Positions 10,732 to 32,690 are shown, counted from the first letter of the stretch. The stretch is 64,000 nt of DNA from Chakrabartia sp. (GCA_040079575.1 JBEBKH010000003.1:7854-71853); one strand, 5' to 3'. Numbers and translations are program-made. Notes: generated from the letters alone by a model not told the origin.

Positions 10732-11984
10732 CAATTGGCGCGCTCCAACCCAAACTGGTTCAGATACCATTTTTGGAAACTAATCACACTGCCCTCCTGA
10801 TCAGAATAGCGTCCCGGACGATAGCGGCTGGACATGATCCCAGCCTGATTATTCTCGGTGATCACTTTGTCCTGTGTGGTCGTAGCATGATAACCCCAGA
10901 TCATTTTTTCGATATCTACCTCTGCCTCGCTGGCGCGGCCATCGACCAGCCAGATCATCTCGACGTCGGTAGCGAGCGCTGAGCGTGGAGTGAATTGGAA
11001 AAGAATGACAAAATGATCATCTGCAACAATCTGGCTGAACGGGCTGAAGCTCAAATGCATCCGCCCGCCGTCGGCATGTGTGCGTTTGCCCATGAGCGGA
11101 GCTGGCGCGGTGCCGTCTTGCGTTTCGGCGGCCCAGCCATCTTTATTCATACGTTGCATCATCAGCCGCAAGTGGCTGCTTTCTGGGGCGTCATCGATAT
11201 TGCCAATCGGACGCCCGACCGCAGCCGCACTTTCTTCCCATGCCTGCAGCTTAGGGGTGAAACTGGCAATGGCATCTGCCGGGCCCGAATTTGGTCCCGC
11301 CCCCACCGCAACAATCGATTCCGCCGCATGCATTGAACAGAATTCGGGGTGCGAAGGGACACAGTGATAGCATTCGAAGAAATTTTCAACGACCAGCTTC
11401 CAATTGGCATCCGTGGGATAGCTGCCAGCATGCGCAATCCGGGCGTCTGCAATCCCGTGATAATCAAGGATCGCTCCCATCTCGCCAAAAGTAGCATCGA
11501 AATCGACGGGCTCACCTTCAGTCATATTAATGAAGATCAGCCCGTGGAACACGCGGACATGGCAAGAAAACAGACTGTTTTCAGCCTTGTCAAAATCCTC
11601 CGGCATCAACCGCGCGGCGATCAACTTGCCATCAAGACCAAACGTCCAAGCGTGATAGGGGCAGACCAATCGCGGCGCATTTCCGCTTTCAGCAGAACAT
11701 AGCGTCGACCCGCGATGACGACAGACATTGAAAAAGGCACGGACGCTATCGGCATTTTCACGGATGATAATGATCTGTTCCTGGCCAATTTTGAACAGGA
11801 AATAGTCGCCCTTCTCTGGCACCCGCGAAACATGCCCGGCAAGGATCCATTTTTTACTGATCACTTGATCCATATCGGCCTTGAACACCTCGGCGCTGGT
11901 GTAAAATTCTTGGTCAAAGCTATACCCAACGCGCGTATTTGCGGCGAGGCGGTTCATCATTTCACTTTGGGTTTCGGTCATCAA
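10731..11984 (-). CDS. Rieske non-heme iron oxygenase alpha subunit (GbcA/Stc2-like), copy 1
   Basis: CRHRG...CPYHAW Rieske ligands; ENFFECYHC...SHPE and QD mononuclear iron ligands. Confidence 0.93.
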   Translation of the reverse strand: MMTETQSEMMNRLAANTRVGYSFDQEFYTSAEVFKADMDQVISKKWILAGHVSRVPEKGDYFLFKIGQEQIIIIRENADSVRAFFNVCRHRGSTLCSAESGNAPRLVCPYHAWTFGLDGKLIAARLMPEDFDKAENSLFSCHVRVFHGLIFINMTEGEPVDFDATFGEMGAILDYHGIADARIAHAGSYPTDANWKLVVENFFECYHCVPSHPEFCSMHAAESIVAVGAGPNSGPADAIASFTPKLQAWEESAAAVGRPIGNIDDAPESSHLRLMMQRMNKDGWAAETQDGTAPAPLMGKRTHADGGRMHLSFSPFSQIVADDHFVILFQFTPRSALATDVEMIWLVDGRASEAEVDIEKMIWGYHATTTQDKVITENNQAGIMSSRYRPGRYSDQEGSVISFQKWYLNQFGLERAN

Positions 11985-14425: not shown

Positions 14426-14428
14426 CGG

Positions 14429-17863: not shown

Positions 17864-18070
17864 GCAAAATAGCGCTTTTTGCCCCTTAGCTTCCCAAACT
17901 TCGCAGGGAGGGCCGTTCCACTGCGAAGTTAAGCGCTTGTGCCCATGGCAAAGCCCAATCAAGCACACCACTGCGGGAGACCCGAGAGGGGTCACCTTAT
18001 GCCATCAGGGATATTCAAAATGAGAAAGAGCAAGCCAAATTGCTCATAGCAAATCCTACATTACAAGGCT
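17864..18070 (+). repeat. Dispersed structured intergenic repeat, copy 2
   Basis: See copy 1; contains perfect stems AACTTCGCAG/CTGCGAAGTT, GCAAAA/TTTTGC, GACCC/GGGTC and GAGCAA/TTGCTC. Confidence 0.9.
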
Positions 18071-18337: not shown

Positions 18338-19102
18338 ATGAAAGTGGCCATAGTGACAGGCGCTGCACAAGGTGTTGGCTTCGCGACGACGCAATTGCTG
18401 ACCCAGAAGGGCTATCATGTCGTGATGACTGATGTGCAGCCGCTCGACGCGCAGCTCAGAAGCCTTACCAGAGATGGCGGCAGTGTTTCTGCATTGTGTG
18501 GTGACGTGGCATCCGAGGCATTTGCAAAAGAGCTTGCCGTCAAGATTGTCGCTGATCACGGTGCTGCAGATGTGCTTGTCAACAATGCGGGTATCAGCTT
18601 GATCTGCCCTGCAGAAGAGACAAGTCTTGAGCAATGGAATCGCATGATGGCGATCAATTTGGCTGGGCCGTTTCTGCTATGCAGGGAATTGGGGCGGGCG
18701 ATGCTGGACCGCGGCAGCGGCAGTATCGTCAATGTGGCCTCTATTGCAGGATTGCACGGGGTGATTCATCGCGCGGCCTATAACGCATCCAAACATGGTT
18801 TGATCGGATTGACCCGCACTTTAGCGGCGGAGTGGGGTGGCCGTGGAATTCGTGTGAACGCCGTATGTCCCGGCTGGATAAAAACCGAAATGGATGCTCG
18901 CGATATGGGTGCGGGAGCCTATAGCGACAAGGATATTGTTGATCGCGTTCCTTCGGCCCGTTTTGCCAAACCCGAAGAGGTCGCGCGCGCGATTCTGTTT
19001 CTTGCGCGCGATGATAATTTCATCAACGGTGCCAGTCTGCCCGTCGATGGTGGATGGACAGCAGATGCAAGTTGGGATGCTCTGCGTTTGCAAACGCGGT
19101 GA
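18338..19102 (+). CDS. Short-chain dehydrogenase/reductase
   Basis: TGAAQGVG, VNNAG, YNASK, PVDGGW. Confidence 0.95.
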   Translation: MKVAIVTGAAQGVGFATTQLLTQKGYHVVMTDVQPLDAQLRSLTRDGGSVSALCGDVASEAFAKELAVKIVADHGAADVLVNNAGISLICPAEETSLEQWNRMMAINLAGPFLLCRELGRAMLDRGSGSIVNVASIAGLHGVIHRAAYNASKHGLIGLTRTLAAEWGGRGIRVNAVCPGWIKTEMDARDMGAGAYSDKDIVDRVPSARFAKPEEVARAILFLARDDNFINGASLPVDGGWTADASWDALRLQTR

Positions 19103-19276
19103 AACAGCAAAAAAACGCAAAAAATTTGACCCCTTTCCCCAAATTTTTCAATTGTGGCCCGTGCCCCTCACAGGCTTAATCTTGACATTGAAAAAGGGGG
19201 AAGGCCGCCGCTTGCCTGCGTGGTGACGTTACGGCAAAGGCCCAAACCATAGACGGATGAATGGGTGCGCGCGCGT

Positions 19277-20230
19277 ATGAAAATTGGTTTTATTGGTCTT
19301 GGCAATGTCGGCGGCAAACTTGCGGGGAGTTTGATCCGCAACGGCCATGATGTGACGGTCCGTGATCTCGATGATGCATTGGTTGCAGACTTTGTCGCGC
19401 GCGGGGCAAAGGCGGCGGCATCTCCCAAAGAACTGGGTGAGAATGTCGACCTGATCGTAACGTGCCTGCCCTCCCCCGCTGCAAGCGCGGCGGTGGCAGA
19501 AGGCGAAGATGGTTTTCTGAACGTCATGCGTGCGGGCCAGGTCTGGCTCGAAATGAGCACCACGGATTATAGCGAAATCATCCGCCTTGGCGCACTGGTT
19601 GAGGCGCGCGGGGCACTGTTTATGGAATGCCCCGTTTCGGGCGGGTGTCACCGCGCTGATACGGGTAATATCGCTATCTTTGCCGGCGGGCCGCGCGCGG
19701 CATTTGAATTCGTCCTGCCAGTGCTGACCACGATGGGGCGGCGTATCCTCCACACGGGCGAATTGGGAACCGCATCACAATTGAAGGTGATGACCAATTA
19801 TCTGTGCACCACCCATCTGGTTGCCTTGGCTGAAGCTTTGACGGTGTGTAAAGCGGTTGGGCTGGATATGAACACGACCTATGAAGCGATCCGCATTTCT
19901 TCTGGCAACAGCTTTGTCCATGAAACCGAGAGTCAGGTGATCCTGAACGGCAGTCGCGACATCAATTTCACGATGGATCTGGTGAGCAAGGATGTTGGGC
20001 TGTTTGACAAGATCGCGCATGAAGCCGGGGTTCCGGTTGAACTCTCTCCGTTAATCGTGCGGCTGTTTAAGGAAGGGGAAGCGGCATATGGCCCGCGCGA
20101 ATTTTCCCCCAACATCATCCGCCGTTATGAAGAACCGTTGGGCATAAAGGTACTCGGCACTGGCTTTCCAGCGGACATGGTAGATGATGAACCCGAAGAA
20201 CCCGGTTATGAAGTTGTGCCCCGTCGTTAG
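19277..20230 (+). CDS. NAD(P)-dependent beta-hydroxyacid dehydrogenase (3-hydroxyisobutyrate/6PGDH family)
   Basis: MKIGFIGLGNVG, ECPVSGG, SQLKVMTN catalytic Lys, FTMDLVSKD. Confidence 0.9.
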   Translation: MKIGFIGLGNVGGKLAGSLIRNGHDVTVRDLDDALVADFVARGAKAAASPKELGENVDLIVTCLPSPAASAAVAEGEDGFLNVMRAGQVWLEMSTTDYSEIIRLGALVEARGALFMECPVSGGCHRADTGNIAIFAGGPRAAFEFVLPVLTTMGRRILHTGELGTASQLKVMTNYLCTTHLVALAEALTVCKAVGLDMNTTYEAIRISSGNSFVHETESQVILNGSRDINFTMDLVSKDVGLFDKIAHEAGVPVELSPLIVRLFKEGEAAYGPREFSPNIIRRYEEPLGIKVLGTGFPADMVDDEPEEPGYEVVPRR

Positions 20231-20234
20231 ACCC

Positions 20235-20260
20235 AGGACCTGACCCTAGGGTCCGGCCCT
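20235..20260. repeat. Imperfect 26-bp palindrome centred on TA between convergent stop codons
   Basis: AGGACCTGACCC-TA-GGGTCCGGCCCT, 11 of 13 pairs; related to TTAGGGYCAGGRCCG motifs elsewhere. Confidence 0.6.
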
Positions 20261-20261
20261 A

Positions 20262-21185
20262 CTAAGCTGGTCCCGCAACGTTCGCCACAATCCAATCCAT
20301 AAAGGTGCGGATGCGGAGATTTTCTTTCATATCCTTGCGGCAGATCAGCCCCCATGTGCCGGGGCAAACTGCCTTATGGTCGATGGGGCGGACAAGGCGT
20401 CCAGCGGCAATATCCTGATCCACAAACGGCCCGTTGACCAGTGCAATGCCTTCATCATTCAGCGCCATTTCAAGCGCAACTGCGAGCGTATCGACCATCA
20501 GATAAGGGACCGAACGATCAAAGCTAATCCCAGCGGACTCGAACCACGTATTCCAGTTTTGCACCTCAGTATAAATTGCAACCAACGGCTGGTGCATCAC
20601 GTTTTCAAACGTCACGTCATCGCCCATATTCTTCATAAAAGTTGGGCTGCACACAGGGTAAAGCGCATATTCGAACAGGGGCACCCAGTGATATTTGGAC
20701 GCGTCGGGTGTCGTTTCGCAATAGACCAAGCCGACATCAGCGTGGACATCATCAAATTCCCATTCGACCGCACAGGTGCTCAACGTGAGTTTGACTTGAG
20801 GATTGGCAGCCAAAAATTGCGGGACACGCCGCGCAAGCCAGCGGATAGAGGCCGTAACATAGGTTTGAACCCGCAGCGGTTTATCAAGCGCGTTCCGGTG
20901 GACGGCCTCCACACCTTCCAACAGCGATTCAAAGGCGGCACGCACATAAGGGTAAAGCACCCGGCCTTCCTCAGACGATACGATGTGACGCCCTTCTTGT
21001 TCAAACAAAGCCACGCCCAGCGCGTCTTCGATCAATTGAACCTGATGGCTGACCGCGGGATGGGTGAGGCAGAGTTCATCGGCCGCATCGCGGATACTTT
21101 GATGCCGTGTCGCCGCTTCAAAACCCTTGAGGGCTTTGAGCGGGGGAAGTGCCCGAAGGTCAATCTTTGCGTGCATCTGCGCCAA
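20262..21185 (-). CDS. LysR family regulator (GcvA-like)
   Basis: LPPLKALKGFEAATRHQSIRDAADELCLTHPAVSHQVQLIE helix-turn-helix. Confidence 0.95.
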   Translation of the reverse strand: MAQMHAKIDLRALPPLKALKGFEAATRHQSIRDAADELCLTHPAVSHQVQLIEDALGVALFEQEGRHIVSSEEGRVLYPYVRAAFESLLEGVEAVHRNALDKPLRVQTYVTASIRWLARRVPQFLAANPQVKLTLSTCAVEWEFDDVHADVGLVYCETTPDASKYHWVPLFEYALYPVCSPTFMKNMGDDVTFENVMHQPLVAIYTEVQNWNTWFESAGISFDRSVPYLMVDTLAVALEMALNDEGIALVNGPFVDQDIAAGRLVRPIDHKAVCPGTWGLICRKDMKENLRIRTFMDWIVANVAGPA

Positions 21186-21252
21186 TCCCTGCGTTTCTAT
21201 CGTGATATGTTGCTAGCAGAGATTGGCTGGATTGGTAAATAAATTTAACGGA

Positions 21253-22872
21253 TTAAACCTGCGCGTCCTCAAGGATCATGGCAGCGCCTTTTTCAGCCAC
21301 CATCACGGTCGGCGCGTTGGTGTTCCCTGACGTAATGGTCGGGAATACTGACGCATCAACGACGCGCAAACCCGTGACGCCGTGCACACGCAAGCGCGCA
21401 TCGACGACCGAAGTCATAGGGTCTGGCCCCATCATGCAGGTGCTTGTGGGGTGATAGACAGTGTCAGCGCGCGCGCGAAAGTCCGCGAGTAAGGCGTCAT
21501 CACCGTCAACCTGCGTCCCAGGCATGATTTCTTCAGTAATGATATCGGCCAACGGTCGGGTCCGCGCGATCTGACGGAGCAAGCGGTTGCCCGCAAGGAC
21601 ATCATTTATGTCCGATTGTGTTGCAAGATAATTGGGATGGATGATCGGGTAAACCGACGCATCGGCTGATGCGAGTTCGATATGCCCCCGGCTCGTCGGG
21701 CGGCAGGGATTGTGTGAGAGCAGGAAGGCTGAAAAGGGATCAGGATTCAAGAGTTTCCGTTCAGAAAGCGGTGTCTTCGTATAGCTGACTGGACTGAAAT
21801 AGAGCTGCAAATTCGCATGCTGCTGGGACGGATCACTGCGCACGAAGCCCCCGCTTTGATTGACGCTCAAGGACAAAGGCCCAGCGCGGTCTGCCGCATA
21901 ACGAAGCCCTGCTCGAATCTTACCAAGAAACGGATACAAAACATCATTCAAAGTCGCCGTGCGCACCTTATAGAAATATGAAACAGCAATATGATCCTGC
22001 ATATTTCGGCCAACAGCCTTGGCATCAACAAGTGGTTCGATTCCGACGCGTTTCAAATGATCAGCATCACCAATGCCGGACAGCATCAACAATTGCGGCG
22101 AATTGATCGCGCCGCCAGATAAGATCACCTCACGCCGCGCCTTAACCTGACAAATTTTCCCGCGACGCCTATATTCAATCCCCACCGCGCGCCGCCCCTC
22201 AAAAAGGATACGTGTAGCGAGCGCATGGGTTCGCAGCGCAAGCGTCTTGCGCTTGCGCACTGGGCGCAAAAAAGCATTCGCCGTTGATGCACGCCACCCG
22301 CCGCGCGTGTTGATCTGATAAAAGCCAACGCCTTCAGGATGTCCGCCGTTGAAATCGCTGCTGCCCGGAAAGCCCAGCGCCTGTGCGGTCTCTATAAAAC
22401 TATGGCAGACGGGATGAACATGAGGAGAAATGTCAGTGACATGCTGCAACCCGCCGCGCCCGTGATACGCACTATGCCAGTCAAAATCCTCTGACTTTTT
22501 GAAATATGGCAACACATCACTCCACCCCCACCCGGGGTTGCCTAATGCCTTCCAATCCTCAAAATCACGCGGCTGACCGCGCACATAGACCATCGCATTG
22601 ATAGAACCCGATCCGCCAACAACCTTTCCGCGCGGCCAATAGCTGCGCCGCCCGCCAAGCGATGCCACCGGCTCTGTATCGTACATCCAGTTGATGCGCT
22701 TATCGAAGAAGGTGCGGCCATAGCCAATCGGCATCTGAATCCAAATCGACAGATCACTGCCACCGGCTTCGAGCAAAAGGACCGTGCTTTTGCCATCCGC
22801 CGTCAGGCGATTGGCCAGCACACAGCCCGCCGTGCCTGCGCCAACGACAATATAATCAAATTCCTCAATCAC
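21253..22872 (-). CDS. GMC oxidoreductase (choline dehydrogenase-like)
   Basis: [35 protein letters not shown] (His/Asn catalytic pair). Confidence 0.93.
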
Positions 22873-24056
22873 CGAACGGGATATTGCGTCATATCAAGAT
22901 GCAACATCGTGCCCGTATACGGGTTGGCACGCGCCACATCTTCATTCAGTTCAATGCCGAGGCCCGGCGCTGTCGGCGGGATGACATGCCCGTCTTCGAA
23001 CTGGATGGGTTTTTTCAAAATCTCGCTGTGAAAGCCGCCCCATGTCTCAATACTTTCGAGGATCAGAAAATTGGGTGAGCACGTAGCGATTTGGATATTC
23101 GCCGCCCCGACAATCGGGCCGCAATAGAGGTGCGGTGCGATCTGAGCATGATAGACCTCGGCCATTCCCGCAATCTTTTTGGCTTCAAGAATACCGCCAA
23201 CGCGCCCAAGGTTCATTTGCAGGATGGCGGCGGCCCCAGCCTTCAGCAATCGTGCAAAATCATATTTGGTGGTCAGTCGCTCTCCCGTCGCAATCGGAAT
23301 GCTGGTCGCGCGCGCAACCTTTGCCATTTCATCAGGCGCATCGGGCGGCACAGGTTCTTCGAGCCACAAAGGGTCATAGGGTTCCAAGCGCTTGGCAAGA
23401 CGGATCGCGCTCGTCGCGGTCATTTGACCGTGCGTCCCAAAGAGGAGGTCCGCCTTGTTGCCTACCGCCTCTCGCAAAGATTTGGCAAAGCGTTCCGACA
23501 GATCGAGGGCATCGAGTGATAATTGCCGCCCGTCAAATGCCGAATAGGGACCCGCTGGATCAAATTTGAGCGCCGTAAACCCCTGGGCCAAATATTCAGC
23601 CGCGCGTTCCGCTGCTAGATCGGGATCATGATAAACATCGCTTTGGTCACCCGCGCGCGGATAAATATAAGTGTAAGCCCGCAAGCGTTCGTGCACTTGC
23701 CCACCAAGCAGTTTGTAAACCGGCTTATTGGCCTCCTTGCCGATAATATCCCAGCACGCCATTTCAAGCGCGGAGAGCACTCCCATCAATGTCAAATCAG
23801 GATGCTGTGTAAAGCCGCTTGAATAAACCCGCCGCCACAGTGTTTCTATGTCATGCGGGTCATTGCCGACACCATAACGCGCGAACACATCCTCAATCAT
23901 CTTGGCAACCAGATGCGGTTCGAACGGCACGCAATAGGCCTCACCGATACCAGACACGCCACAGTCCGTCGTTAACTTCACAAAAACGAAATAGCGGCCA
24001 CCAAAATGCGGCGGCGGATTGCCGACCACAAAGGTTTCGATGTCAGTCAGTTTCAT
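22869..24056 (-). CDS. Mandelate racemase/muconate lactonizing (enolase superfamily) enzyme
   Basis: GIGEA, EMACWDIIGK, ALKFD, WLEEP, TGER, APH motifs. Confidence 0.9.
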   Translation of the reverse strand: MKLTDIETFVVGNPPPHFGGRYFVFVKLTTDCGVSGIGEAYCVPFEPHLVAKMIEDVFARYGVGNDPHDIETLWRRVYSSGFTQHPDLTLMGVLSALEMACWDIIGKEANKPVYKLLGGQVHERLRAYTYIYPRAGDQSDVYHDPDLAAERAAEYLAQGFTALKFDPAGPYSAFDGRQLSLDALDLSERFAKSLREAVGNKADLLFGTHGQMTATSAIRLAKRLEPYDPLWLEEPVPPDAPDEMAKVARATSIPIATGERLTTKYDFARLLKAGAAAILQMNLGRVGGILEAKKIAGMAEVYHAQIAPHLYCGPIVGAANIQIATCSPNFLILESIETWGGFHSEILKKPIQFEDGHVIPPTAPGLGIELNEDVARANPYTGTMLHLDMTQYPVR

Positions 24057-25492
24057 CCTTCGAATCCGTTGATGACCTTGATCTCAAGGAAATCATGCAA
24101 GCCCCATTCACCCCATTCGCGGCCATTGCCCGACTGTTTGTAGCCCCCGAACGGAGATCCATAATCCTGTCCAGCGCCGTTGATGCTAACGCCGCCCGCG
24201 CGCAGTCGGCGTGAAACGCGGCGTGCACGCTCTAGATCACCACTTTGGACATAAGCAGCCAAGCCATAAGGCGAATCATTGGCGATTTCGATGGCATCCG
24301 CTTCATCTTTGAAGGGGATCATGACGAGGACTGGCCCGAAAACCTCTTCTTGCGCAATCGCCATATTGTTGTTGACGCCTGCAAAGATCGTCGGTTTCAC
24401 ATAATAGCCGCGATCAAAACCGTCCGCCCGTCCAGTCCCGCCCGCAATCACCTGTGCCCCTTCATCAATGCCAATTTGGATCAGGCGTTGGATCTTATCA
24501 AATTGTAATTTGCTGACGACGGGTCCAAAATGCGCGCCCTTTTCCATCGGATCACCCAACTTTGCGTCCGTCGCCGCGACCCGCGCGGCAATGGCAACCG
24601 CTTCGTCATAAACCGACGCTTCAACAAGCATACGGGTTGGCGCGTTGCAGGATTGCCCTGCATTTTCAAAGCAGTGCAGGACACCGCGTTTAACCGCAGC
24701 CTCCAAATCTGAATCAGCAAATACAATGTTGGCAGATTTGCCGCCCAATTCCTGCGACACACGTTTAACCGTGTCCGCTGCTGACTTTGCGACTTGAATG
24801 CCGGCGCGGGTTGATCCGGTGAAGGAGATCATATCGACTTCTGGATGGCTGGTCAGCGCGTCGCCAATTGCCGGCCCTGTGCCGTGGACCATGTTAAATA
24901 CGCCGGGCGGAAAACCTGCCTCATCAATGAATGCAGCAAAAAGCTGGGCTGAAAGAGGCGCGACTTCACTGGGTTTCAAAACCATCGTGCAACCAGCAAT
25001 AAGGGCGGGACCAACCTTTGCCGCCAGCTGGTTAATCGGCCAGTTCCACGGGGTGATCAGGACGCAGACACCAATGGGTTCACGGACAAGACGGGCATGG
25101 GCACCCATCTTGCGTTCCCACTCCATCTCACGCGCAGCCTTGATCGTTTCTTTGAGATGACCGGGGCCGCATTCGGCCTGCGCATTGAACGATAGATCAT
25201 AAGGTGCGCCCATTTCAGTTGAAATAGCAGTCACCATTTCAGCGTAGCGCCGTTCAAATATGGCGATCAGCTTTTCCGTCAGCGCGATACGGTCTTCAAG
25301 CGATGTCGCGGCATAGCCCTCAAACGCAGCCCGCGCTGCTTGGACAGCACGGTCGACGTCATCATGCCCACATACGGCAATTGTCGCACAGACCTCCTCC
25401 GTTGCAGGATTGATCGCAGTGACAGTTTCGGTCGAAGTGGCGGGAAGAACCCACGCACCGTTGATATAGGATTTGAATAGACCTTCAGACAT
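24053..25492 (-). CDS. Aldehyde dehydrogenase
   Basis: ITPWNWP, KPSE, FTGS, QELGGKS, GQSC catalytic Cys, EEVFGPV; start at MSEGLF overlapping the MFS stop. Confidence 0.95.
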   Translation of the reverse strand: MSEGLFKSYINGAWVLPATSTETVTAINPATEEVCATIAVCGHDDVDRAVQAARAAFEGYAATSLEDRIALTEKLIAIFERRYAEMVTAISTEMGAPYDLSFNAQAECGPGHLKETIKAAREMEWERKMGAHARLVREPIGVCVLITPWNWPINQLAAKVGPALIAGCTMVLKPSEVAPLSAQLFAAFIDEAGFPPGVFNMVHGTGPAIGDALTSHPEVDMISFTGSTRAGIQVAKSAADTVKRVSQELGGKSANIVFADSDLEAAVKRGVLHCFENAGQSCNAPTRMLVEASVYDEAVAIAARVAATDAKLGDPMEKGAHFGPVVSKLQFDKIQRLIQIGIDEGAQVIAGGTGRADGFDRGYYVKPTIFAGVNNNMAIAQEEVFGPVLVMIPFKDEADAIEIANDSPYGLAAYVQSGDLERARRVSRRLRAGGVSINGAGQDYGSPFGGYKQSGNGREWGEWGLHDFLEIKVINGFEG

Positions 25493-26801
25493 ACCCAACG
25501 GCTCTTTTCTGATCTTCAATCACATATTTTTCAGCGCGCCAATAATGCCACGCCGCCCAAAAACCAGTGGGGGCGAGAACGAGCAATGCCATGCGTAATG
25601 ATGCAGCATCCGCCCCAGCAGGCCCTGCGAAATAGTCGCTGAGAAAGCCAACGCCTTGCGGCGCAATGATCAGGTTGAAAACATTGGCTATCAACAGCGA
25701 AATTGCAATGAACATAGCCCGCATCTTTGGCGGCGCGAGATTTTGCGCCAACGAAAAGGCCGGGCCAATGTAGAAATAAATTGCAGGAATGAACAGCCAC
25801 CACATCGCTGTGGCCAGCGTCAAAGACTGCGTATAATAAGCGATAATCGATGGGATCGTCGCAAGCGCTGTCACAACACCCAGCAACCGTAATATCTTTC
25901 TCGGGTCTGTATAGGCAGGGCGGGCGACGAGCCAAGCCGTCAAAAGCGACGCCCCAATACCCATCACCAGATGGATTGGCCCAACGACAGCCCCCGCCTC
26001 TCCGACATCAAGATTATAAGTCCGCTGAATAAATGTTGGAGTAAACCACATCAGCCCCCAACCCCATAGCGCGGAAACACCGCTCCCCATCATAGCGTGA
26101 ACAGCCGCTTTTTGCGACCAAAGAAATTTAATCGTTTCCATTACCGGAGGCGCCGGTTCATCGGATACGGCGTCAAGCCGCCCGCGCGCAGGCTCTTTGA
26201 TCGTCAAGAAAATGAACAGTGCCAAAATAACTCCTGGTACGCCGAGCACATAGAAGGCCGCGCGCCAGCCATAGTCTGCCGCAACCGCGCCCGCCATATC
26301 AGCGCCTAGCCAAGCACCAATCGGCGCACCAAGTGCAAAAACGGTCATCGCCATAGCGCGGCGGCTGGCGGGGAAATAATCCGCAACAATCGCATTGCAT
26401 GATGGGGTTCCGCCAGCTTCGCCAATGCCGACACCAATCCGGGCGAGCAGCAGTTGCATATAACCCTGCGACATGCCGCACAGAGCGGTCATCGCCGACC
26501 AGATTGTCATTGAAATGGCGAGCAAATTCTTGCGGTTGTAGCGATCTGCAATCCAGGACAGGGGGATCCCCATTGTCACATAGAACAGCGCCAATGAAAC
26601 ACCGGTAAGAAACGCAACCCCGCCGTCAGTCAGTTTCAGTTCAAGCCGGATGGGTTCCAAAACCGTCGACATGACATAGCGATCCGCAATGTTGATCGTA
26701 TAGGCGAGCATCATGATGATAAGAACGTACCAGCGCTGCCCTAGCGTCGAGACTTGATCGGCATTGACTGTTCCGGTCGGCGCACTGCTCGCCATACTCA
26801 T
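25485..26801 (-). CDS. MFS transporter (Spinster-like)
   Basis: INIADR, WIADRYNRK, ARIGVGIGEAG motifs; about 12 hydrophobic segments. Confidence 0.92.
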   Translation of the reverse strand: MSMASSAPTGTVNADQVSTLGQRWYVLIIMMLAYTINIADRYVMSTVLEPIRLELKLTDGGVAFLTGVSLALFYVTMGIPLSWIADRYNRKNLLAISMTIWSAMTALCGMSQGYMQLLLARIGVGIGEAGGTPSCNAIVADYFPASRRAMAMTVFALGAPIGAWLGADMAGAVAADYGWRAAFYVLGVPGVILALFIFLTIKEPARGRLDAVSDEPAPPVMETIKFLWSQKAAVHAMMGSGVSALWGWGLMWFTPTFIQRTYNLDVGEAGAVVGPIHLVMGIGASLLTAWLVARPAYTDPRKILRLLGVVTALATIPSIIAYYTQSLTLATAMWWLFIPAIYFYIGPAFSLAQNLAPPKMRAMFIAISLLIANVFNLIIAPQGVGFLSDYFAGPAGADAASLRMALLVLAPTGFWAAWHYWRAEKYVIEDQKRAVGYV

Positions 26802-26806
26802 TCCCC

Positions 26807-28813
26807 TCAGGTTGCGGCCAATTCTGGCCCTAATATGTCGCGCAGTGGATCAAGATAGAGGGAGAAATTCTCCCATTGATCAACGCCGCTTTTGAATATT
26901 GGTTGTCGTACTTGTTCTGAACTGGCGGTGCGCACCGCGCGTTCGGTTTTGTGAAAATTGATACAGGCCTCTTCAAAAGGGAGGCCGCAGAAATCAAGCA
27001 GACGGCGCACTTGTGATTCAATGTCTGCAACGACATCTTCATAGTGCACACGCAGAACTTTTCCGGGCAGGAGTGTGTCCCAATGGTCCATCAGCGCAAC
27101 ATAGTCTTTGTAATAACGCCCAACTTCCTCCAGCCCATAAGTGAATTCTTGGCCCTCCGCGAACAATTGCTTGAAACCACTAAAACAGCATCCCATCGCC
27201 CCACGCCGCGCATCGATGATCTTGGCATTGGGTAATATCATGTGAATAAGGCCAATGTGCCGGAAGTTATTGGGCATCTTGTCGATGAAAAATGGTGTGC
27301 CCTGTTTACGCTGGATTTGGGTATCGCGAATGAAAGCTTCGCCAAAGGCCGTCAGTTCCTCATGGCGCAATTCACCCAAATTGGCAGGGTAACGCGCTTC
27401 TTCATCTATTCGCCTGCGGCCATCAAGTTTGTGCGCAAGCGCAAGGATGTTGGGCAACTCCATTGTCCCTTCCACCTGACTATGCGATGACAGTATCTGT
27501 TCAAGCAGCGTCGATCCTGCACGGGGAAGGCCAAGGATGAAGATCGGATCGGCGGCCTTGCAACCGGCTCCCGATGTTTTTGCAAATAATTCTGGTGTGC
27601 AATGTTCAATCTGGAGCGCGATTTCGTTTGAAATTCTGCGCCAATCATAACCGACCTCTTCGCGTTTCAAACGATTGCCGCGTTCATAATAGACGAAGGA
27701 TGCGCCATAATCTCCGCGATCCTCCAGCGCCTTACCAAGCGCAAAACACAGGTGATAACGGTCCGCAAGCTGGGTCGATTTGCTATCTTCATGTACACGC
27801 ATCGCCGCGATCTGAACGTCATCAAATTTATAGGTTTTGAGGTTGGCCAAGCTCCAATAGGCGTCACCATAATCAGGCTTTATGCTATACGCCTTCGTAT
27901 AGGCCGCTATTGCTTCTTTTTGTTGTCCCGTGGTTTTGAGGGCATGGCCAAGCGTGAGGTGAATGTTAGGGTTGTTGGGCACCTGCTCAGCCCGCGCGCG
28001 GTAAACGGCAAGCGCCTCATCAAAATTACCGACCGCCAAATTCTGATTGGCGTAGAGCATATCAAGCTGAGGATTTTCCGGCTCTTTCGCGCGCAGCAGC
28101 CGGGCCTGTTCCAAGGCCTCAGCAAACTTCTGCCGTTTCTGAAGCGTTTCGACATAGTCGAAATGCGCGCCGACATTATCCGGGTCAAGCTCTACCGCCG
28201 ATTCGAGCAGGAACTCTGCTTCGTCATGCACGTTGAAGCTCATGCCAATCTGCGCGAGGAAGCGCATCCCTTCGACATGGTGGCCCTGCGTCTGGAGGAA
28301 GTGTCGGCACAATTGTTCCGCCTTATACAACTTGCCTTCCTGGATCAGGCTGGCAACTGAGAGCAATTGCGGCGGAAGGGATGAAAGATAGTCAACCTGC
28401 GCTGCAGCAAAATCAACTGCCGTTTCACGACCAGCATCTGCGTGATAAGTTTCCAGCATCTGCCAGCTGCCGAGCAACGCATTATTGCGCGCAACTGCTT
28501 CCTGATAGGCAGCAAAAGCAGCCTCTGTATCGCCTTGATCGCGCAGGCAATGGGCAGATTCCTGATGGGCACGGCCATTGGCTGGATCGAGTGCGATCAG
28601 TCTTTGCGTTTGAACGAGCGCATCCGTGAAATTTTGTTGAAGGCGACGTGCGACCGCAAGCGTGTAGAGTGCCTCCGTCTGGTCTGGCGTCTCATCAAGC
28701 AGCGCTTGACAGGCAGAAGCCGCATCCGCGATCCGTCCAGACTGCAACAGCTGCCGCGCGCGGCGTAGCACTTCTTCGGGGTTTTCCACCTCAGTGGCCA
28801 GTTGCATTGTCAT
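26807..28813 (-). CDS. TPR-repeat protein fused to a C-terminal PAPS-dependent sulfotransferase domain
   Basis: Multiple TPR-like helical repeats, then PIFILGLPRAGSTLLEQIL (5'-PSB loop), FIDKMPNNF, IIDARR..MGCCFS; AGGGA RBS before MTMQL; the ORF-track extension to 29155 overlaps the TBDR. Confidence 0.9.
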   Translation of the reverse strand: MTMQLATEVENPEEVLRRARQLLQSGRIADAASACQALLDETPDQTEALYTLAVARRLQQNFTDALVQTQRLIALDPANGRAHQESAHCLRDQGDTEAAFAAYQEAVARNNALLGSWQMLETYHADAGRETAVDFAAAQVDYLSSLPPQLLSVASLIQEGKLYKAEQLCRHFLQTQGHHVEGMRFLAQIGMSFNVHDEAEFLLESAVELDPDNVGAHFDYVETLQKRQKFAEALEQARLLRAKEPENPQLDMLYANQNLAVGNFDEALAVYRARAEQVPNNPNIHLTLGHALKTTGQQKEAIAAYTKAYSIKPDYGDAYWSLANLKTYKFDDVQIAAMRVHEDSKSTQLADRYHLCFALGKALEDRGDYGASFVYYERGNRLKREEVGYDWRRISNEIALQIEHCTPELFAKTSGAGCKAADPIFILGLPRAGSTLLEQILSSHSQVEGTMELPNILALAHKLDGRRRIDEEARYPANLGELRHEELTAFGEAFIRDTQIQRKQGTPFFIDKMPNNFRHIGLIHMILPNAKIIDARRGAMGCCFSGFKQLFAEGQEFTYGLEEVGRYYKDYVALMDHWDTLLPGKVLRVHYEDVVADIESQVRRLLDFCGLPFEEACINFHKTERAVRTASSEQVRQPIFKSGVDQWENFSLYLDPLRDILGPELAAT

Positions 28814-28891
28814 GTTTTCATCCCTGGACCCTTGGTCTTTCGACATATCTGATCCAGAACGGGCACTGCGTGCAATGAAATTCGAGAAAGC

Positions 28892-28918
28892 GGGCGCCCT
28901 GGCCAAGCCAGAGCGCCC
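28892..28918 (-). terminator. GC-rich hairpin between the TBDR and sulfotransferase genes (possible terminator/mRNA stabiliser)
   Basis: GGGCGC-C-CTGGC / GCCAG-A-GCGCCC stem. Confidence 0.45.
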
Positions 28919-28928
28919 TTCCCAACTG

Positions 28929-31580
28929 TCAGATCTTGTACGAGAAGCGCAGGCCAATCGTACGCGGACGCGTCGTGGTAGTGCGGAGTTCCCCATCGTT
29001 ACCGCTCTTATAAAGCTCGGAACGCTTATCAGTGAGGTTGTCACCGAAGACTTCCATCCGCCAATCATCCTTGGCGACGCCAAAGGCCGCGCCGAACAAC
29101 TGGTAGGAATCGAGCTGCTGCGCGGCAGGGAGCGGCACAATGACGTCTCCTGCACGAACTGTTACACCATTATAGACTGCTGTCGCTCCCGAATAACGGA
29201 TGTCGACATTGTCGATCACGTCCGAAATGCTCTTGCCGACATGCTGGAAACGTACATTGGCAAACGGTCTCAAGCCATTGCTCAGCTCCTTTTCCCAAGC
29301 CAGCCGAACGTTGAATTGGAACTTTGGACTAAGCGCAAGCGGCCCACCAAGTGGACGCAGCACTCTGGTATTTTGACGGTAGCGCTTCATTTCAGAATCA
29401 TTAAACGAGAAAGCGCTGTTGATCGTGAACTCTTGCGATGCCCGGAAAGTCACATCGCCTTCCAGTCCCTTGATGCGTGCATCGAGCAGGTTGGACGTGA
29501 AGGTCTGGTTCGAAATGTTCTGGTCAAACACCGTGATCTGGATATTCTTCCAGTCGATCAAATAGGCAGCAAGGTTGATCTGCAAACGCCGATCTAGCAG
29601 CGAGAATTTGCCGCCCACTTCATAATTGGCCACCTTGTCAGGGACATAAGTGCCAAGCCGCACGAAATCGGCATTGGTTGGACAAATGGCGCTGGGCACC
29701 CGGCACGGACGACGGTTGAAACCGCCAGGCCGAAAACCGTCCGAATAAGTCGCATAGACCAGCGAGCCTTCATTGAATTTGTACGTCAGGTTGCCCTTGA
29801 ACAGCACACCGGTATATTTTGCCGGCGAGGCATCAGCATAGAGCTGGTTCAGGTTTGCGCTGACACCATAGAATAGTGGTGGCGTGGCAGACGGTGAATA
29901 GGTACCCGTCGCCGGATTATAGACACCACGAGAAACGCCGTCAAAGCTTGTATTCGACGACCCATTGATTGAAGCCTTTTCGTTGTAGTAGCGCAGGCCA
30001 CCCGTCAGGGTCAGCTTTTCAGGCACGATGTCGAACGAGGCTTCGCCGTAAGCCGCAAACTGCTTGTCTTTGCGCTGAACGTCATTGAAAAAGCCGACTT
30101 TGACTGGGCGAACGCCGGTGTCGTTAGCGTTCACGGACGGGTTTGGCGCGCGACGATAGATGAAGCCAGCCGCCTCGCTCAGATACGACCAATCGGTATT
30201 GTCAAACAATTTGTTGTCATCATAGAACAAACCGAACGTGCCGCGGATGCGCTTGTCGACAGGGGTCGTTACCCGGAATTCGTGCGTCATACGCTTGGTG
30301 CGGTTACGAACCTGATAGCTCTTGTTGGGCGCATAGCAGGTGCGGCCGAGCGCCGGATTGTTGTAATAAACGCCAGCATCACACTCATAATAGGGCAGAT
30401 AGAGGCCAATATTCGAATAACCAGCATAATCTGCGACTTGCGTCGCACGATGCTTGAGGAACGATCCCGTATAGATCATCTCCAGCGCGCCGAGGCGTCC
30501 GTTGATGCCCAAAGAGGTTAGAGCCACTTTGTCGCGCAGACTATTGTCATTGAACTTGGTAACCTGCAAATCACCCACACCGGGCTCAAAATCGAACACA
30601 CCATCCGTATCCAGCTCTTGGCGCAGATGCATCACATCGATCGACCAGTCGTCATTGATTTGATAATTAAGCGCAATACGACCGCCGCGATAGGTTGCGT
30701 CGTTGTAATTCTTCTCAACGAACGCGTCATTGTTGATCGTCTGGCGGATAGGAGGCGTGTAGCCGCTGCCAGTGCAGTTAGCGACGCCGGCACAGGACTG
30801 GATCGCCTGCCTCACTAAAAGCGGATTGCCCGTTGGCAGCCTTCCGGCCAGGCCAACATTACCGTTAAATGGCATCTGAAAGGTGCCCGCAACATTGTCG
30901 ATATAGCCGCCCTGGCTATCAGCATAGACGACAACCCGCAGCGCCAGCTTGTCCTTGATGATCGGAACGTTAATGAAGGCATCACCCGCGACGCTCTCGT
31001 CACCGCTCTTGGTGAAGGCGTAGCTCGCGTTCACGCCTGCATGGAAATCGGACGGATCAGCCTTGTTCGTGATGTAGCGAACGGCGCCGCCCATTGCGCT
31101 TGCGCCAAACAACGTCCCCTGCGGCCCCGCCAAAACTTCAACGCGTTGAAGATCGACTGTGTAGAGATCAAGGTTACGGCCAACCAAGGAAGCGGGTGAG
31201 TCGTTGACATAGAGTGCGACTGTGGGCTGCGCACCTGCAGTACCTGCAATCTGGAGACCAGGCGAGTCAGTGGAAAGTCCGCGAATGAAGATCGATGAAG
31301 CGCCGGGTCCGCGCGACGCCGCGCGAACGTTTGGCAGAACTTCCAGCAGCTTGTCGAACTTCGTGATCCCTAGGTCAGACAAGGTGTCTCCGCTCAAAGC
31401 CTGAATGGCGAGCGGGATTTTGTTCAGCGATTCTTCACGCCGCGTGGCCGTGACAACGATATCGGCAATAGCACGATCATCTTCAGCGGCAGTGGCATCT
31501 TGTGCAAAGGCCGGGGCCCCTCCTGCGCCAAGCGCCGTCAGAACGCATATAGCTGTCGATATCTTCCAGTTGGTTTTCAA
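28929..31580 (-). CDS. TonB-dependent outer membrane receptor
   Basis: Signal peptide (APAFA), TonB-box-like DIVVTATRRE, plug IFIRG, RVEVLAGPQGTLFGASAMGG, beta-barrel with NYEVGGK. Confidence 0.95.
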   Translation of the reverse strand: MKTNWKISTAICVLTALGAGGAPAFAQDATAAEDDRAIADIVVTATRREESLNKIPLAIQALSGDTLSDLGITKFDKLLEVLPNVRAASRGPGASSIFIRGLSTDSPGLQIAGTAGAQPTVALYVNDSPASLVGRNLDLYTVDLQRVEVLAGPQGTLFGASAMGGAVRYITNKADPSDFHAGVNASYAFTKSGDESVAGDAFINVPIIKDKLALRVVVYADSQGGYIDNVAGTFQMPFNGNVGLAGRLPTGNPLLVRQAIQSCAGVANCTGSGYTPPIRQTINNDAFVEKNYNDATYRGGRIALNYQINDDWSIDVMHLRQELDTDGVFDFEPGVGDLQVTKFNDNSLRDKVALTSLGINGRLGALEMIYTGSFLKHRATQVADYAGYSNIGLYLPYYECDAGVYYNNPALGRTCYAPNKSYQVRNRTKRMTHEFRVTTPVDKRIRGTFGLFYDDNKLFDNTDWSYLSEAAGFIYRRAPNPSVNANDTGVRPVKVGFFNDVQRKDKQFAAYGEASFDIVPEKLTLTGGLRYYNEKASINGSSNTSFDGVSRGVYNPATGTYSPSATPPLFYGVSANLNQLYADASPAKYTGVLFKGNLTYKFNEGSLVYATYSDGFRPGGFNRRPCRVPSAICPTNADFVRLGTYVPDKVANYEVGGKFSLLDRRLQINLAAYLIDWKNIQITVFDQNISNQTFTSNLLDARIKGLEGDVTFRASQEFTINSAFSFNDSEMKRYRQNTRVLRPLGGPLALSPKFQFNVRLAWEKELSNGLRPFANVRFQHVGKSISDVIDNVDIRYSGATAVYNGVTVRAGDVIVPLPAAQQLDSYQLFGAAFGVAKDDWRMEVFGDNLTDKRSELYKSGNDGELRTTTTRPRTIGLRFSYKI

Positions 31581-31832: not shown

Positions 31833-32690
31833 ATGCTGAAAGCTGCAGATTTTGTTTTGTTGATCGCGAGTGAAGACCGCAAGGGCATTGTCGCTGCGGT
31901 TGCCAATTCGATTGCCAGCCAAGATTGTAACATCGTTGAAAATGCGCAATTTGGCGATGCTAACACAGGGCGCTTCTTCATGCGGGTTGCTGTTTCGGGA
32001 CCGGACGGCATGACGAAGCAAAGCTTCACTGATGCATTCATGCCGGTGGCAACAGCATTTCGCCTGGAATGGAAAATTCATGATCTCAGGGAAAAACTGC
32101 GGGCAATGATCATGGTCAGTCAGGGCGGGCATTGCCTCAATGATTTGCTATACCGGACATCTGCCAAGCGGTTGCCGATGGAGGTGACGAGCATCGTTTC
32201 CAATCACACCACATGGCAACGCCGCGCTGAACATGAAGGTATCCCATTTTTTCACCTGCCGATCACGGCTGAAACCAAGCTTGACCAAGAGGCGAAATTG
32301 ATGGCGCTGGTTGAGGAACAGCAAGTCGATTTGATCATCCTCGCGCGCTATATGCAGGTCTTGTCAGATCAACTGTGCCGCAAGCTCGATGGCCGCGTGA
32401 TCAATATCCACCATAGCTTTTTGCCCGGCTTTAAGGGCGCTAAACCCTATCACCGCGCTTATGAGCGTGGGGTAAAGATGGTCGGGGCAACCGCCCATTA
32501 TGTGACACCCGACCTTGATGAAGGGCCAATTATCACACAGGATGTTTCAATCGTTGACCATGCCGACACGGTGGATGACCTGATCGCGCAAGGGCAAGAT
32601 ACCGAAAGCCGGGTTCTAGCAAGGGCGGTCAAACTTCATCTTGAACACCGAGTGCTGCTCAGTGGCAGCCGTACTGTCATTTTTAAGTGA
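31833..32690 (+). CDS. purU: Formyltetrahydrofolate deformylase
   Basis: N-terminal ACT domain, HCLNDL, LARYMQVLS, INIHHSFLPGFKGAKPY, GATAHYVT, LDEGPII. Confidence 0.97.
   Translation: MLKAADFVLLIASEDRKGIVAAVANSIASQDCNIVENAQFGDANTGRFFMRVAVSGPDGMTKQSFTDAFMPVATAFRLEWKIHDLREKLRAMIMVSQGGHCLNDLLYRTSAKRLPMEVTSIVSNHTTWQRRAEHEGIPFFHLPITAETKLDQEAKLMALVEEQQVDLIILARYMQVLSDQLCRKLDGRVINIHHSFLPGFKGAKPYHRAYERGVKMVGATAHYVTPDLDEGPIITQDVSIVDHADTVDDLIAQGQDTESRVLARAVKLHLEHRVLLSGSRTVIFK

Follow-up and report, generated by a model that had tools for sequence, protein, structure and literature searches.

Why should a PAPS-type sulfotransferase with a long TPR arm be encoded between an outer-membrane receptor and an inner-membrane transporter, in what otherwise looks like a degradative operon? 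The question is raised by positions 18338–31580 of a 64,000-nucleotide stretch of DNA from a freshwater sphingomonad, Chakrabartia sp. (GCA_040079575.1 JBEBKH010000003.1:7854-71853), referred to here as the window. All nine genes of this region were confirmed by Pfam and NCBIfam and belong to the families named in the original prediction, whose view of an uncharacterised operon for uptake and degradation is supported; that the locus is an uptake and catabolic operon is considered highly probable. The features of the locus and of its neighbourhood are as follows.

9658..16846, minus strand: neighbouring demethylation module, outside the operon (MDR dehydrogenase, GbcA-like Rieske oxygenase, two DMGDH-like flavoenzymes)
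18338..19102, plus strand: short-chain dehydrogenase/reductase (SDR), convergent with the operon, present in nine related loci (Pfam/NCBIfam)
19265..20230, plus strand: HIBADH-type beta-hydroxyacid dehydrogenase (HIBADH), convergent with the operon (Pfam/NCBIfam)
20262..21185, minus strand: LysR-family regulator, GcvA-like, on the operon strand and at its end (Pfam/NCBIfam)
21253..22872, minus strand: GMC flavoprotein alcohol oxidoreductase, choline-dehydrogenase-like (Pfam/NCBIfam)
22869..24056, minus strand: enolase-superfamily enzyme, galactonate-dehydratase-like, with MR_MLE N and C domains (Pfam)
24053..25519, minus strand: NAD(P)-dependent aldehyde dehydrogenase, ALDH (Pfam Aldedh, E 2.6e-156)
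25485..26801, minus strand: MFS inner-membrane transporter, starting 5 nt past the stop codon of the sulfotransferase gene (Pfam/NCBIfam)
26807..28846, minus strand: cytoplasmic TPR-sulfotransferase (ST), TPR plus Sulfotransfer_3 (Pfam, E 1.9e-51)
28882..28925, minus strand: GC-rich hairpin just past the receptor stop codon, core stem 28892–28918 (sequence and predicted ΔG)
28929..31580, minus strand: TonB-dependent receptor (TBDR) of 883 aa, with plug and barrel domains (Pfam)
31833..32690, plus strand: purU, formyl-THF deformylase, divergent from the receptor gene and a marker of folate-dependent demethylation (Pfam)

The genes for ST, MFS, ALDH, the enolase-family enzyme and GMC are tightly packed, being joined by a 5-nt gap or by overlaps, and the nine-gene order is repeated in >15 sphingomonad genomes, so that the arrangement is not due to chance. 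The conserved unit is nevertheless the receptor–ST core and not the entire operon. Only loci of the freshwater clade carry the ALDH, enolase-family and GMC genes, and in most of these loci LysR keeps its place at the operon end; HIBADH, whose nearest solved structure is 2-(hydroxymethyl)glutarate dehydrogenase, is 85–93% identical across the clade. The MFS gene lies 3′ of ST in 23 of the 25 freshwater-clade loci, including two (L025 and L026) without the enzyme genes. The inner-membrane carrier beside the pair varies, namely MFS in freshwater sphingomonads and a BCCT carrier of betaine/choline type in the marine sister clade.

The receptor–ST pairing is widespread, and no paper describing it was found in the literature. 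When ST genes of at least 45% identity with enough upstream DNA were considered (n = 71), the receptor gene was found to end ≤400 nt upstream of ST, on the same strand, in 70 loci. The sole genome with a split pair still encodes both proteins; in L079, ST adjoins a BCCT carrier rather than the receptor. Among 201 alphaproteobacterial family representatives, ST adjoins a receptor homologue in all seven receptor-holding genomes other than the window's own, with the gene order reversed in two of them. In addition, the whole pair occurs in tandem copies in some loci (e.g. L051), and the distance matrices of receptor and ST are correlated (r 0.93, Mantel p 0.001), although much of this correlation could stem from common descent alone. 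Cultured carriers include Erythrobacter sp. NAP1 and Sphingobium xenophagum NBRC 107872. The adjacency in 70 of 71 loci strongly supports the idea of a TPR protein tied to the receptor, which is the part that survives of an earlier proposal making it a scaffold or sensor; a physical role of that sort fits poorly with a protein that has no signal peptide, and is therefore cytoplasmic, and that the intervening hairpin suggests to be less abundant than the receptor.

This hairpin lies between the two genes (predicted ΔG −31 kcal/mol), and a hairpin 3′ of the receptor stop codon is present in nearly all loci, though sequences vary; in related loci the hairpins at this position have a median ΔG of −28.6, versus −16.2 in control windows (p 4e-17). 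The element is likely an intercistronic attenuator or an mRNA-stabilising structure, and ST would probably be produced by read-through, at a lower level than the receptor. No Rfam element was found in or beside the operon. As to the ST start, GTG 29155 (the longest ORF) was rejected and translation begins at ATG 28846 or ATG 28813, the gene being called at 668 aa in the database.

ST is built of about ten TPR repeats with capping helices (residues 23–423) followed by the Sulfotransfer_3 domain (residues 430–679). Its AF2 model (pLDDT 91) displays ten 34-residue repeats, and the top fold matches retrieved by Foldseek are the TPR arms of OGT, SPINDLY and Naa15. The TPR groove is under selection, its positions having an entropy of 1.42 versus 1.7–2.1 elsewhere (p 3e-4 against other non-core positions). 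OGT and SPINDLY likewise consist of a long N-terminal TPR superhelix with a conserved groove and a C-terminal transferase domain; they are, however, glycosyltransferases, and the OGT-type asparagine ladder is not evident in ST, where the conserved groove residues are mixed.

For the catalytic domain, the nearest solved structures are the protein-tyrosine sulfotransferases TPST1/2 (PDB 5wrj, 3ap1, 8w5z; E about 1e-9, roughly 20–25% identity), which together with RaxST are members of the same Pfam family as ST (PF13469). The features shared with TPST1/2 are the 5′-PSB loop, the Lys, the 3′-PB Arg/Ser and a C-terminal S..QV..P motif. The 5′-PSB loop of ST (GLPRAGST) aligns with TPST GVPRSGTT, and its residues P441, R442, G444 and T446 do not vary among 47 sequences; K523 and R548, also invariant, and S556, conserved in at least 90%, align with the TPST NKDP Lys and the RDGR...S motif of the 3′-PB. 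These motifs identify ST as a PAPS-type enzyme whose PAPS site is complete, and its first description as a PAPS-type sulfotransferase with a long TPR arm is upheld. The catalytic base of TPST2, which we take to be E99, aligns with a Gly of ST (‘VEGTMELP’), with an invariant E463 two residues downstream and an invariant H455 upstream. TPSTs also differ in lacking a TPR arm and in working in the Golgi, whereas ST is cytoplasmic. Of 47 genomes that have an ST homologue, 45 encode an APS kinase, compared with 76 of the 154 that do not (p 1.2e-9). That no gene for PAPS synthesis or sulfatase lies nearby is correct, since the APS kinase domain of the window genome is found in a 633-aa ORF on contig C138 and its single sulfatase-family gene on contig C11.

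Which nutrient the operon handles can be approached through the neighbours of the pair. The BCCT carrier occurs in 27 loci and directly adjoins the pair in 21; in the sister clade (52–55% ST identity) it is the immediate neighbour in 21 of 28 tree rows, a link that is not a feature of the MFS clade. In marine Erythrobacteraceae, the operon is reduced to BCCT, receptor and ST. At least one betaine-type marker gene is present in 44 of 58 well-covered loci, the recurrent neighbours being betaine-demethylation genes (GbcA-like Rieske, DMGDH-like, purU and a BetI-type regulator). The same divergent purU neighbour is seen in 15 related loci, homologues of the GbcA-like/DMGDH-like module flank the receptor–ST operon in several other genomes, and formate dehydrogenase genes accompany the GbcA-like, DMGDH-like and purU genes within the window. 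The quaternary-amine link, first proposed from the enzyme families of the operon, thus gains independent support from BCCT carriers beside sister-clade pairs and from betaine-demethylation genes in several lineages and in the window itself.

The oxidative enzymes point in the same direction. GMC scores 550 bits against a choline dehydrogenase subfamily model (cut-off 605) and 453 against betA (cut-off 732), and among solved structures it comes nearest to a chloramphenicol primary-alcohol oxidase (8b7s) and to an oxygen-dependent choline dehydrogenase. The best NCBIfam model of ALDH is betaine-aldehyde dehydrogenase (418 bits, cut-off 669), the nearest solved structures having no assigned function. 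The proposed resemblance of GMC and ALDH to BetA/BetB is therefore borne out as regards the best models but not the cut-offs, and, since all choline/betaine matches fall below the equivalog cut-off, these enzymes would be paralogues for a related compound. The locus has GMC oxidase and ALDH in common with choline/glycine-betaine systems (BetT/BCCT, BetA-BetB, GbcAB, DMGDH, PurU), and the likeness extends to its neighbours (sister-clade BCCT; GbcA-like, DMGDH-like, purU and BetI-type genes); in contrast, known choline/betaine pathways lack the enolase-family enzyme, the TonB-dependent receptor and the sulfotransferase, all three of which are present here. A substrate of the N-methylated amine type, a class deduced from this context, is reasonably probable, the most likely nutrient being a hydroxylated, N-methylated choline- or betaine-type compound. 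It would cross the outer membrane via the receptor and the inner membrane via MFS, GMC and ALDH would convert its primary alcohol into a carboxylate, the resulting hydroxy-acid would be processed by the enolase-family enzyme and the two NAD(P) dehydrogenases, and neighbouring genes would remove the N-methyl groups and oxidize the C1 units.

An alternative that concerns the substrate class only, and to which we give a low probability, is that the cassette (MFS, ALDH, enolase-family enzyme, GMC, HIBADH and SDR) degrades an acid sugar, a polyol or another hydroxy-acid and is merely joined to a general receptor–ST module. The cassette could serve a non-amine substrate because MFS and the enolase-family enzyme score best in acid-sugar families: the best NCBIfam model of MFS is the anion:cation symporter/D-galactonate-transporter subfamily, and the enolase-family enzyme reaches 261 bits with the galactonate dehydratase model (cut-off 311) and 268 with a second model of gluconate/galactonate type (cut-off 750), its match at 610 bits being PDB 4e5t, a structural-genomics entry without assigned function. 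Moreover, orthologues of this enzyme, found in 24 of the 201 alphaproteobacterial genomes, are often next to a HIBADH-like gene, and the two occur together in many Alphaproteobacteria without receptor–ST and in varied contexts. Every such score, however, is below its family cut-off, the best models of GMC and ALDH are those for choline and betaine aldehyde, in several genomes the operon lies between purU plus formate dehydrogenase genes on one side and the GbcA-like/DMGDH-like module on the other, and in others it adjoins a Rieske oxygenase and a PLP enzyme.

The best explanation, advanced tentatively, is that of an uptake-and-oxidation operon organized around a module of receptor and PAPS-dependent TPR-ST, in which the nutrient is probably an N-methylated hydroxy compound and ST acts on a polypeptide. 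The last point, taken separately, has close to an even chance of being right: ST would sulfate a polypeptide more likely than the nutrient, the best candidate being the unfolded receptor precursor before export, although action on the receptor itself is somewhat unlikely. RaxST, too, is a bacterial enzyme of the cytoplasm whose peptide substrate is exported later, and HMW1C, a cytoplasmic glycosyltransferase, modifies an adhesin before export. The RaxST–RaxX system nevertheless includes a peptide gene and an exporter, and neither was found near ST: no recurring small ORF that could be a RaxX-like peptide gene appears among the ORFs listed, and no RaxABC-like peptide exporter among the conserved neighbours of the pair.

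The receptor carries a signal peptide and a TonB box (DIVVTA) in addition to its plug and 22-strand barrel; its AF2 model (pLDDT 83) matches TonB-dependent transporters in general by Foldseek (12–16% identity). Its loop 384–418 is Tyr-rich and Cys-bracketed, with Y385, Y388, Y398, C400 and C415 invariant in 43 paired receptors. It is conceivable, but quite unlikely, that ST sulfates tyrosines of this surface loop in the unfolded precursor of its own receptor, yielding an anionic, aromatic trap for cationic quaternary amines. The loop is not specific to paired receptors: an unpaired homologue on contig C43 keeps the DY..Y motif and is equally Tyr-rich, and two further receptors of the window genome approach the same Tyr-richness. 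To our knowledge, no Sec-exported outer-membrane protein has been reported to be sulfated ahead of export. If ST does modify the loop in this way, the result would be, as far as we know, the first sulfotyrosine on a bacterial outer-membrane protein and a new means of tuning receptor specificity; more broadly, the receptor–ST pairing may be a sign of bacteria placing chemical tags on their own receptors.

Alternatively, ST could sulfate an imported small molecule in the cytoplasm, either converting a choline-type alcohol into a sulfate ester (as compatible solute or for trapping) or activating a hydroxyl for elimination as in CurM; this is judged unlikely. In that case, co-evolution of receptor and ST would follow from recognition of one compound by both, and such shared specificity fits the tandem pairs and the co-divergence. 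The BCCT, receptor and ST of marine Erythrobacteraceae would suffice to import choline and make choline-O-sulfate, the ST of L079 stays by the BCCT carrier, away from the receptor, the ST domain is also matched by the CurM and OLS sulfotransferases (E 2e-6 to 3e-5), and ST lacks the TPST catalytic Glu at the corresponding position. In Pontixanthobacter, clusters of TBDR, BCCT and sulfotransferase track halotolerance equally, although the neighbourhood of the three is not shown there (PMC10040529). Against this, a small-molecule enzyme would not be expected to have a TPR arm of 400 residues with a conserved groove, and the downstream enzymes are wholly different between clades while ST is still 50% identical. 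No sulfatase or other sulfate-releasing enzyme was found in any version of the locus examined. On general grounds, spending one PAPS per molecule of growth substrate would be costly and an osmolyte is little needed in freshwater.

Polypeptide sulfation, our preferred reading, has a partial parallel in CciT–CciO (also Fiu–YbiX and PiuA–PiuC), where a TonB-dependent transporter likewise lies beside a cytoplasmic enzyme, co-conserved across Proteobacteria; the CciT receptor of Caulobacter strictly needs the adjacent CciO, by a molecular link that is not known (PMC12004947). The partner there is a 2OG/Fe(II) dioxygenase, in a Fur-regulated system that serves iron uptake, whereas here it is a TPR-sulfotransferase in a context of amine/betaine catabolism, and no iron genes were seen among the neighbours of the pair examined, which are amine and C1 genes. 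A model proposed for CciT–CciO (model 1) and the siderophore-like products predicted by Iyer et al. 2010 (PMC2938197) for TonB-linked neighbourhoods of tailoring enzymes suggest that ST could instead make a sulfated capture molecule, secreted or cell-bound, which the receptor then takes up, the strict pairing being similar. This is very improbable, because the pair is not accompanied by further conserved genes for biosynthesis or export; its recurrent neighbours are importers and catabolic genes.

Import of a choline-O-sulfate-like ester and its desulfation by reverse sulfotransfer to PAP, as first proposed, is scarcely tenable: the quaternary-amine context is real and LysR weakly matches the choline-sulfate regulator model, but at 160 bits (cut-off 325), genes for a BetC-type sulfatase and a choline-sulfate binding protein are absent from the vicinity, unlike in the choline-O-sulfate system with its adjacent BetC and cognate LysR, and neither LysR nor the sole sulfatase-family gene, on another contig, fits such a system. 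Alkyl sulfate esters are poor donors for making PAPS, a strongly uphill reaction, and both the TPR arm and the ST–receptor pairing would be left unexplained.

TonB-type receptors beside enzymes of peptide-modifying type, including dioxygenases, halogenases and sulfotransferases, have been described by Iyer et al. 2010 (PMC2938197), with siderophore-like metabolites as predicted products; the accessible part of that paper describes neither a simple receptor plus TPR-ST pair nor a link to BCCT/MFS and betaine genes. The window genome has a second receptor/TPR-ST locus, on contig C12 (receptor, TPR-ST, Asp/Asn hydroxylase and 2OG oxygenase), which is of the kind found in those neighbourhoods.

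The operon claimed in the original prediction is upheld, and its nine gene families are all supported by both Pfam and NCBIfam. The window lies in the genome bin of a freshwater sphingomonad (2.54 Mb, 98% complete). The genes are arranged as follows.

28929-31580, minus strand: TonB-dependent receptor (TBDR), first in minus-strand order
26807-28846, minus strand: TPR-sulfotransferase (ST), second in minus-strand order
Minus strand, in this order after the ST: MFS transporter, ALDH, enolase-superfamily enzyme, GMC oxidoreductase, LysR regulator
Plus strand: SDR and β-hydroxyacid dehydrogenase (HIBADH)-type dehydrogenase

From the ST through the GMC gene, neighbouring genes overlap or are separated by 5 nt. 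A start of the ST at GTG 29155 (longest ORF) was rejected; the start is ATG 28846 or 28813, and the database gene call has 668 aa. On one side, the operon is flanked by purU, Zn-dependent alcohol dehydrogenase and formate dehydrogenase genes, and on the other by a GbcA-like gene and two DMGDH-like genes, a layout retained in several genomes. Promoter and terminator consensus sites were no commoner than in shuffled sequence, and an Rfam scan of 17.5-33 kb of the window returned zero matches, as it did for the interval 17864-18070 between the acyltransferase and SDR genes just outside the operon. In the purU-receptor and receptor-ST gaps, no plausible ORF for a small precursor peptide was found. 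A second purU/receptor junction, 78-81% identical at the amino-acid level, is present on a 2-kb contig of the same genome (C185) and is probably a co-binned strain variant.

When the window proteins were mapped onto 80 loci encoding ST relatives, taken from species-representative genomes, the complete gene order recurred in freshwater Sphingomonadales (Sphingorhabdus, Novosphingobium and relatives), and the sole invariant part was the receptor gene followed by the ST gene. A homologous receptor gene ends at most 400 nt upstream, on the same strand, in 70 of the 71 loci with an ST gene of at least 45% identity and enough upstream DNA; in the genome with the single exception (locus L079), an ST and, on a different contig, an orthologue of the receptor are retained, one of each. 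Among 201 alphaproteobacterial family representatives, the ST adjoins a receptor homologue (E < 1e-40) in 7/7 genomes besides the window's own, so that paired and unpaired receptor homologues are not comparable across this sample. The pairing survives inversion of the gene order, since in two of these seven genomes, both distant relatives with an ST 43% identical to that of the window, the ST precedes the receptor (G004:C51:59112-63673 and G198:C1:4018861-4023302). Receptor and ST distances are correlated (r 0.93, Mantel p 0.001), much of which could be attributable to common descent alone. Some genomes carry two or three pairs, partly in tandem, as in the gammaproteobacterial loci L051:281-21899 and L067:3-11947; those of L051 adjoin an enolase-family (68%) and HIBADH-like (45%) gene pair.

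What accompanies the pair is variable. The ST tree has two main clades. In the window clade, a homologue of the window's MFS gene follows the ST in 23 of 25 loci, including two (L025 and L026) that are devoid of the enzyme genes. In the sister clade (Erythrobacteraceae, Hellea, Parvularcula, Woeseia and Porticoccaceae; 52-55% ST identity), a carrier of the BCCT betaine/choline/carnitine family adjoins the pair in 20 of 28 tree rows (Pfam E 6e-141; top NCBIfam model, glycine-betaine BCCT transporter). The pair also repeatedly neighbours genes for GbcA-like Rieske oxygenases, for DMGDH-like and DAO flavoenzymes, for a BetI-type regulator, for PurU and for a cystathionine-γ-synthase-family PLP enzyme, with at least one such marker gene in 44 of the 58 well-covered loci. 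The varying carriers (MFS or BCCT), the betaine-type neighbours and the conserved flanking layout suggest that the receptor-ST pair would be a module by which small methylated amines or related compounds enter through the outer membrane, to which an exchangeable inner-membrane carrier would be joined and which, in the window, oxidising enzymes would extend. The link to quaternary amines made in the original prediction is thus plausible, given the BCCT carriers beside sister-clade pairs and the demethylase-type neighbours. In some Hellea and Porticoccaceae loci (L034:12011-17955, also L040, L045, L049 and L077), the genes after the pair encode an Ldh_2-family dehydrogenase, an ALDH and a peptidase-M19-like protein, together with two further conserved proteins of 568 and 259 aa that match no Pfam family.

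The enzymes of the window's cassette point to a type of chemistry. The GMC enzyme reaches 550 bits with the subfamily model for choline dehydrogenase, whose cut-off is 605, and among known structures it comes closest to a chloramphenicol primary-alcohol oxidase and a choline dehydrogenase; the top model of the ALDH is betaine-aldehyde dehydrogenase, with a score under the cut-off. Among solved structures, 2-(hydroxymethyl)glutarate dehydrogenase comes closest to the HIBADH-like enzyme. The enolase-family protein scores under the galactonate dehydratase cut-off and matches PDB entry 4e5t with about 610 bits, as well as four similar structural-genomics entries; none of the five carries a functional name, and no papers were found on 4e5t, 4e4u, 3t4w, 3rcy or 4j3z. 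Of the 201 alphaproteobacterial genomes, 24 encode orthologues of this protein (60-73% identity), often beside a HIBADH-like gene; apart from this frequent neighbour, the contexts of the orthologues differ per family and gave no shared signal as to substrate. A fitting pathway would oxidise a primary alcohol to the acid and then abstract a proton beside the carboxylate, with elimination or epimerisation. As substrate, hydroxylated betaines such as algal betaine-lipid head groups are an appealing guess and no more, and an acid sugar or polyol is a real alternative. In one alphaproteobacterium (L103:10623-11552), the enolase-family orthologue adjoins a TauE/SafE sulfite-exporter-family gene, a single case that hints weakly at a sulfonated substrate.

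The ST is devoid of a signal peptide and retains the 5′-PSB loop GLPRAGST, the Lys of DKMPN, the 3′-PB Arg/Ser and the C-terminal S..QV..P motif, all invariant or nearly so among 47 sequences. The closest solved relatives of its catalytic domain are the protein-tyrosine sulfotransferases TPST1/2 (E about 1e-9), followed by the CurM and OLS sulfotransferases; a Gly aligns with the catalytic Glu of TPST2, and an invariant Glu lies two residues further on, so that the ST is no more than a candidate member of the TPST type. In the AlphaFold2 model (pLDDT 91, pTM 0.83), ten regular TPRs and capping helices precede the catalytic domain, and in structure the model best matches the TPR arms of OGT, SPINDLY and Naa15, each of which serves to present polypeptides to a transferase. 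Groove-facing TPR positions, assigned by canonical repeat register, show clearly stronger conservation than the remaining non-core positions (entropy 1.42 versus 1.7-2.1, p 3e-4); the conserved residues include Y61, R68, R92, Q95, E96, R195, D230, H301, K304, T305 and N335, which argues for a conserved macromolecular ligand. As to the sulfate donor, the gene content of the window's genome allows PAPS synthesis, and APS kinase is encoded in 45 of 47 genomes with an ST homologue versus 76 of 154 without (201 genomes, p 1.2e-9). In three genomes (G176:C64, G191:C4 and G006:C1), a distant paralogue of the TPR-ST is encoded at 4-6 kb from an APS kinase gene.

This architecture favours a polypeptide as the target of the ST, and, given the strict pairing, the receptor precursor is the candidate to consider first. 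The main rival is that the ST sulfates the imported compound, which would explain both the co-divergence of receptor and ST and the minimal operons consisting of BCCT, receptor and ST. It does not account for the TPR arm, for the lack of an enzyme that releases sulfate or for the occurrence of such different downstream enzymes after the same ST. The mechanism initially proposed, import of a choline-O-sulfate-like compound and its desulfation by reverse sulfotransfer to PAP, is unsupported, since the LysR and sulfatase tests for a choline-sulfate system both fail, and making PAPS from such an ester is an uphill reaction.

A loop of the receptor at residues 384-418 is bracketed by Cys and rich in Tyr (9 per 40 residues, with Y385, Y388, Y398, C400 and C415 invariant), and strand counting in the model predicts it to be the fourth extracellular loop. 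This loop is weak evidence for modification because similar ones occur in other receptors: two in the window's genome have 8 Tyr per 40 residues, and as a mark of ST-paired receptors it was rejected, the genome's only unpaired homologue (C43:244-5569, 30% identity) being equally Tyr-rich and keeping DY..Y. The C43 receptor gene is followed by apparent amino-acid-type permease and FAD oxidase genes, judged by their N-terminal sequences; if these identities hold, the receptor family may serve amines more generally. A Foldseek search with the receptor model returned generic transporter matches only.

In the window, the gap from the receptor stop codon to the start of the ST contains a strong hairpin (ΔG about −31 kcal/mol). 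Nearly all loci have a GC-rich hairpin, of locus-specific sequence, after the stop codon of the receptor gene (median ΔG −28.6 versus −16.2 in control windows, p 4e-17), which suggests that more of the receptor is produced than of the ST and the proteins encoded downstream. Such an excess fits a catalytic rather than stoichiometric role of the ST.

Oligotrophic Alpha- and Gammaproteobacteria take up nutrients with high affinity mainly through TonB-dependent receptors, and methylated amines (for example choline and betaines, including those of algal betaine-lipid head groups) are major aquatic currencies of carbon and nitrogen. A receptor family almost never found without a sulfotransferase, and located beside betaine carriers and demethylases, indicates a missing step in the capture of such compounds at nanomolar levels. 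Receptors with a dedicated cytoplasmic enzyme are already known, and the pairing described here is a variant of such systems. Of the analogues studied by experiment, the closest is the Caulobacter pair CciT-CciO, with Fiu-YbiX and PiuA-PiuC as homologues, where the TonB-dependent transporter strictly requires the adjacent cytoplasmic dioxygenase for an unexplained reason (PMC12004947). TonB-receptor neighbourhoods with peptide-modifying-type enzymes, including sulfotransferases, have been described, and metabolite synthesis was proposed for them (Iyer et al. 2010, PMC2938197). Searches for literature combining sulfotransferase, TonB and TPR, and for the receptor and TPR-ST pair or its association with BCCT/MFS carriers, found none. 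The possible payoff of settling the ST function is high: if the ST modifies the receptor, protein tyrosine sulfation would join bacterial envelope biology, with a possible hint to the workings of CciT-CciO and other receptor-enzyme pairs, and if it sulfates the nutrient, a bacterial route to sulfated amines would be identified. Cultured strains with the pair include Erythrobacter sp. NAP1, Qipengyuania nanhaisediminis, Aurantiacibacter gilvus and Sphingobium xenophagum NBRC 107872 (loci L066, L070, L058 and L068).

Besides the window's ST, the same genome encodes two further TPR-STs. On contig C12 (L083:5062-13022, minus strand), the gene for a second receptor (1053 aa) precedes those for a TPR-sulfotransferase (680 aa), an Asp/Asn β-hydroxylase (386 aa) and a 2OG-Fe(II) oxygenase (502 aa), with no transporter or catabolic gene between them. 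On contig C15 (L082:8902-12440), which ends inside the gene, a shorter TPR-sulfotransferase begins at the stop codon of a SpoT/RelA gene (spoT) and is 46% identical to the window ST from residue 159.
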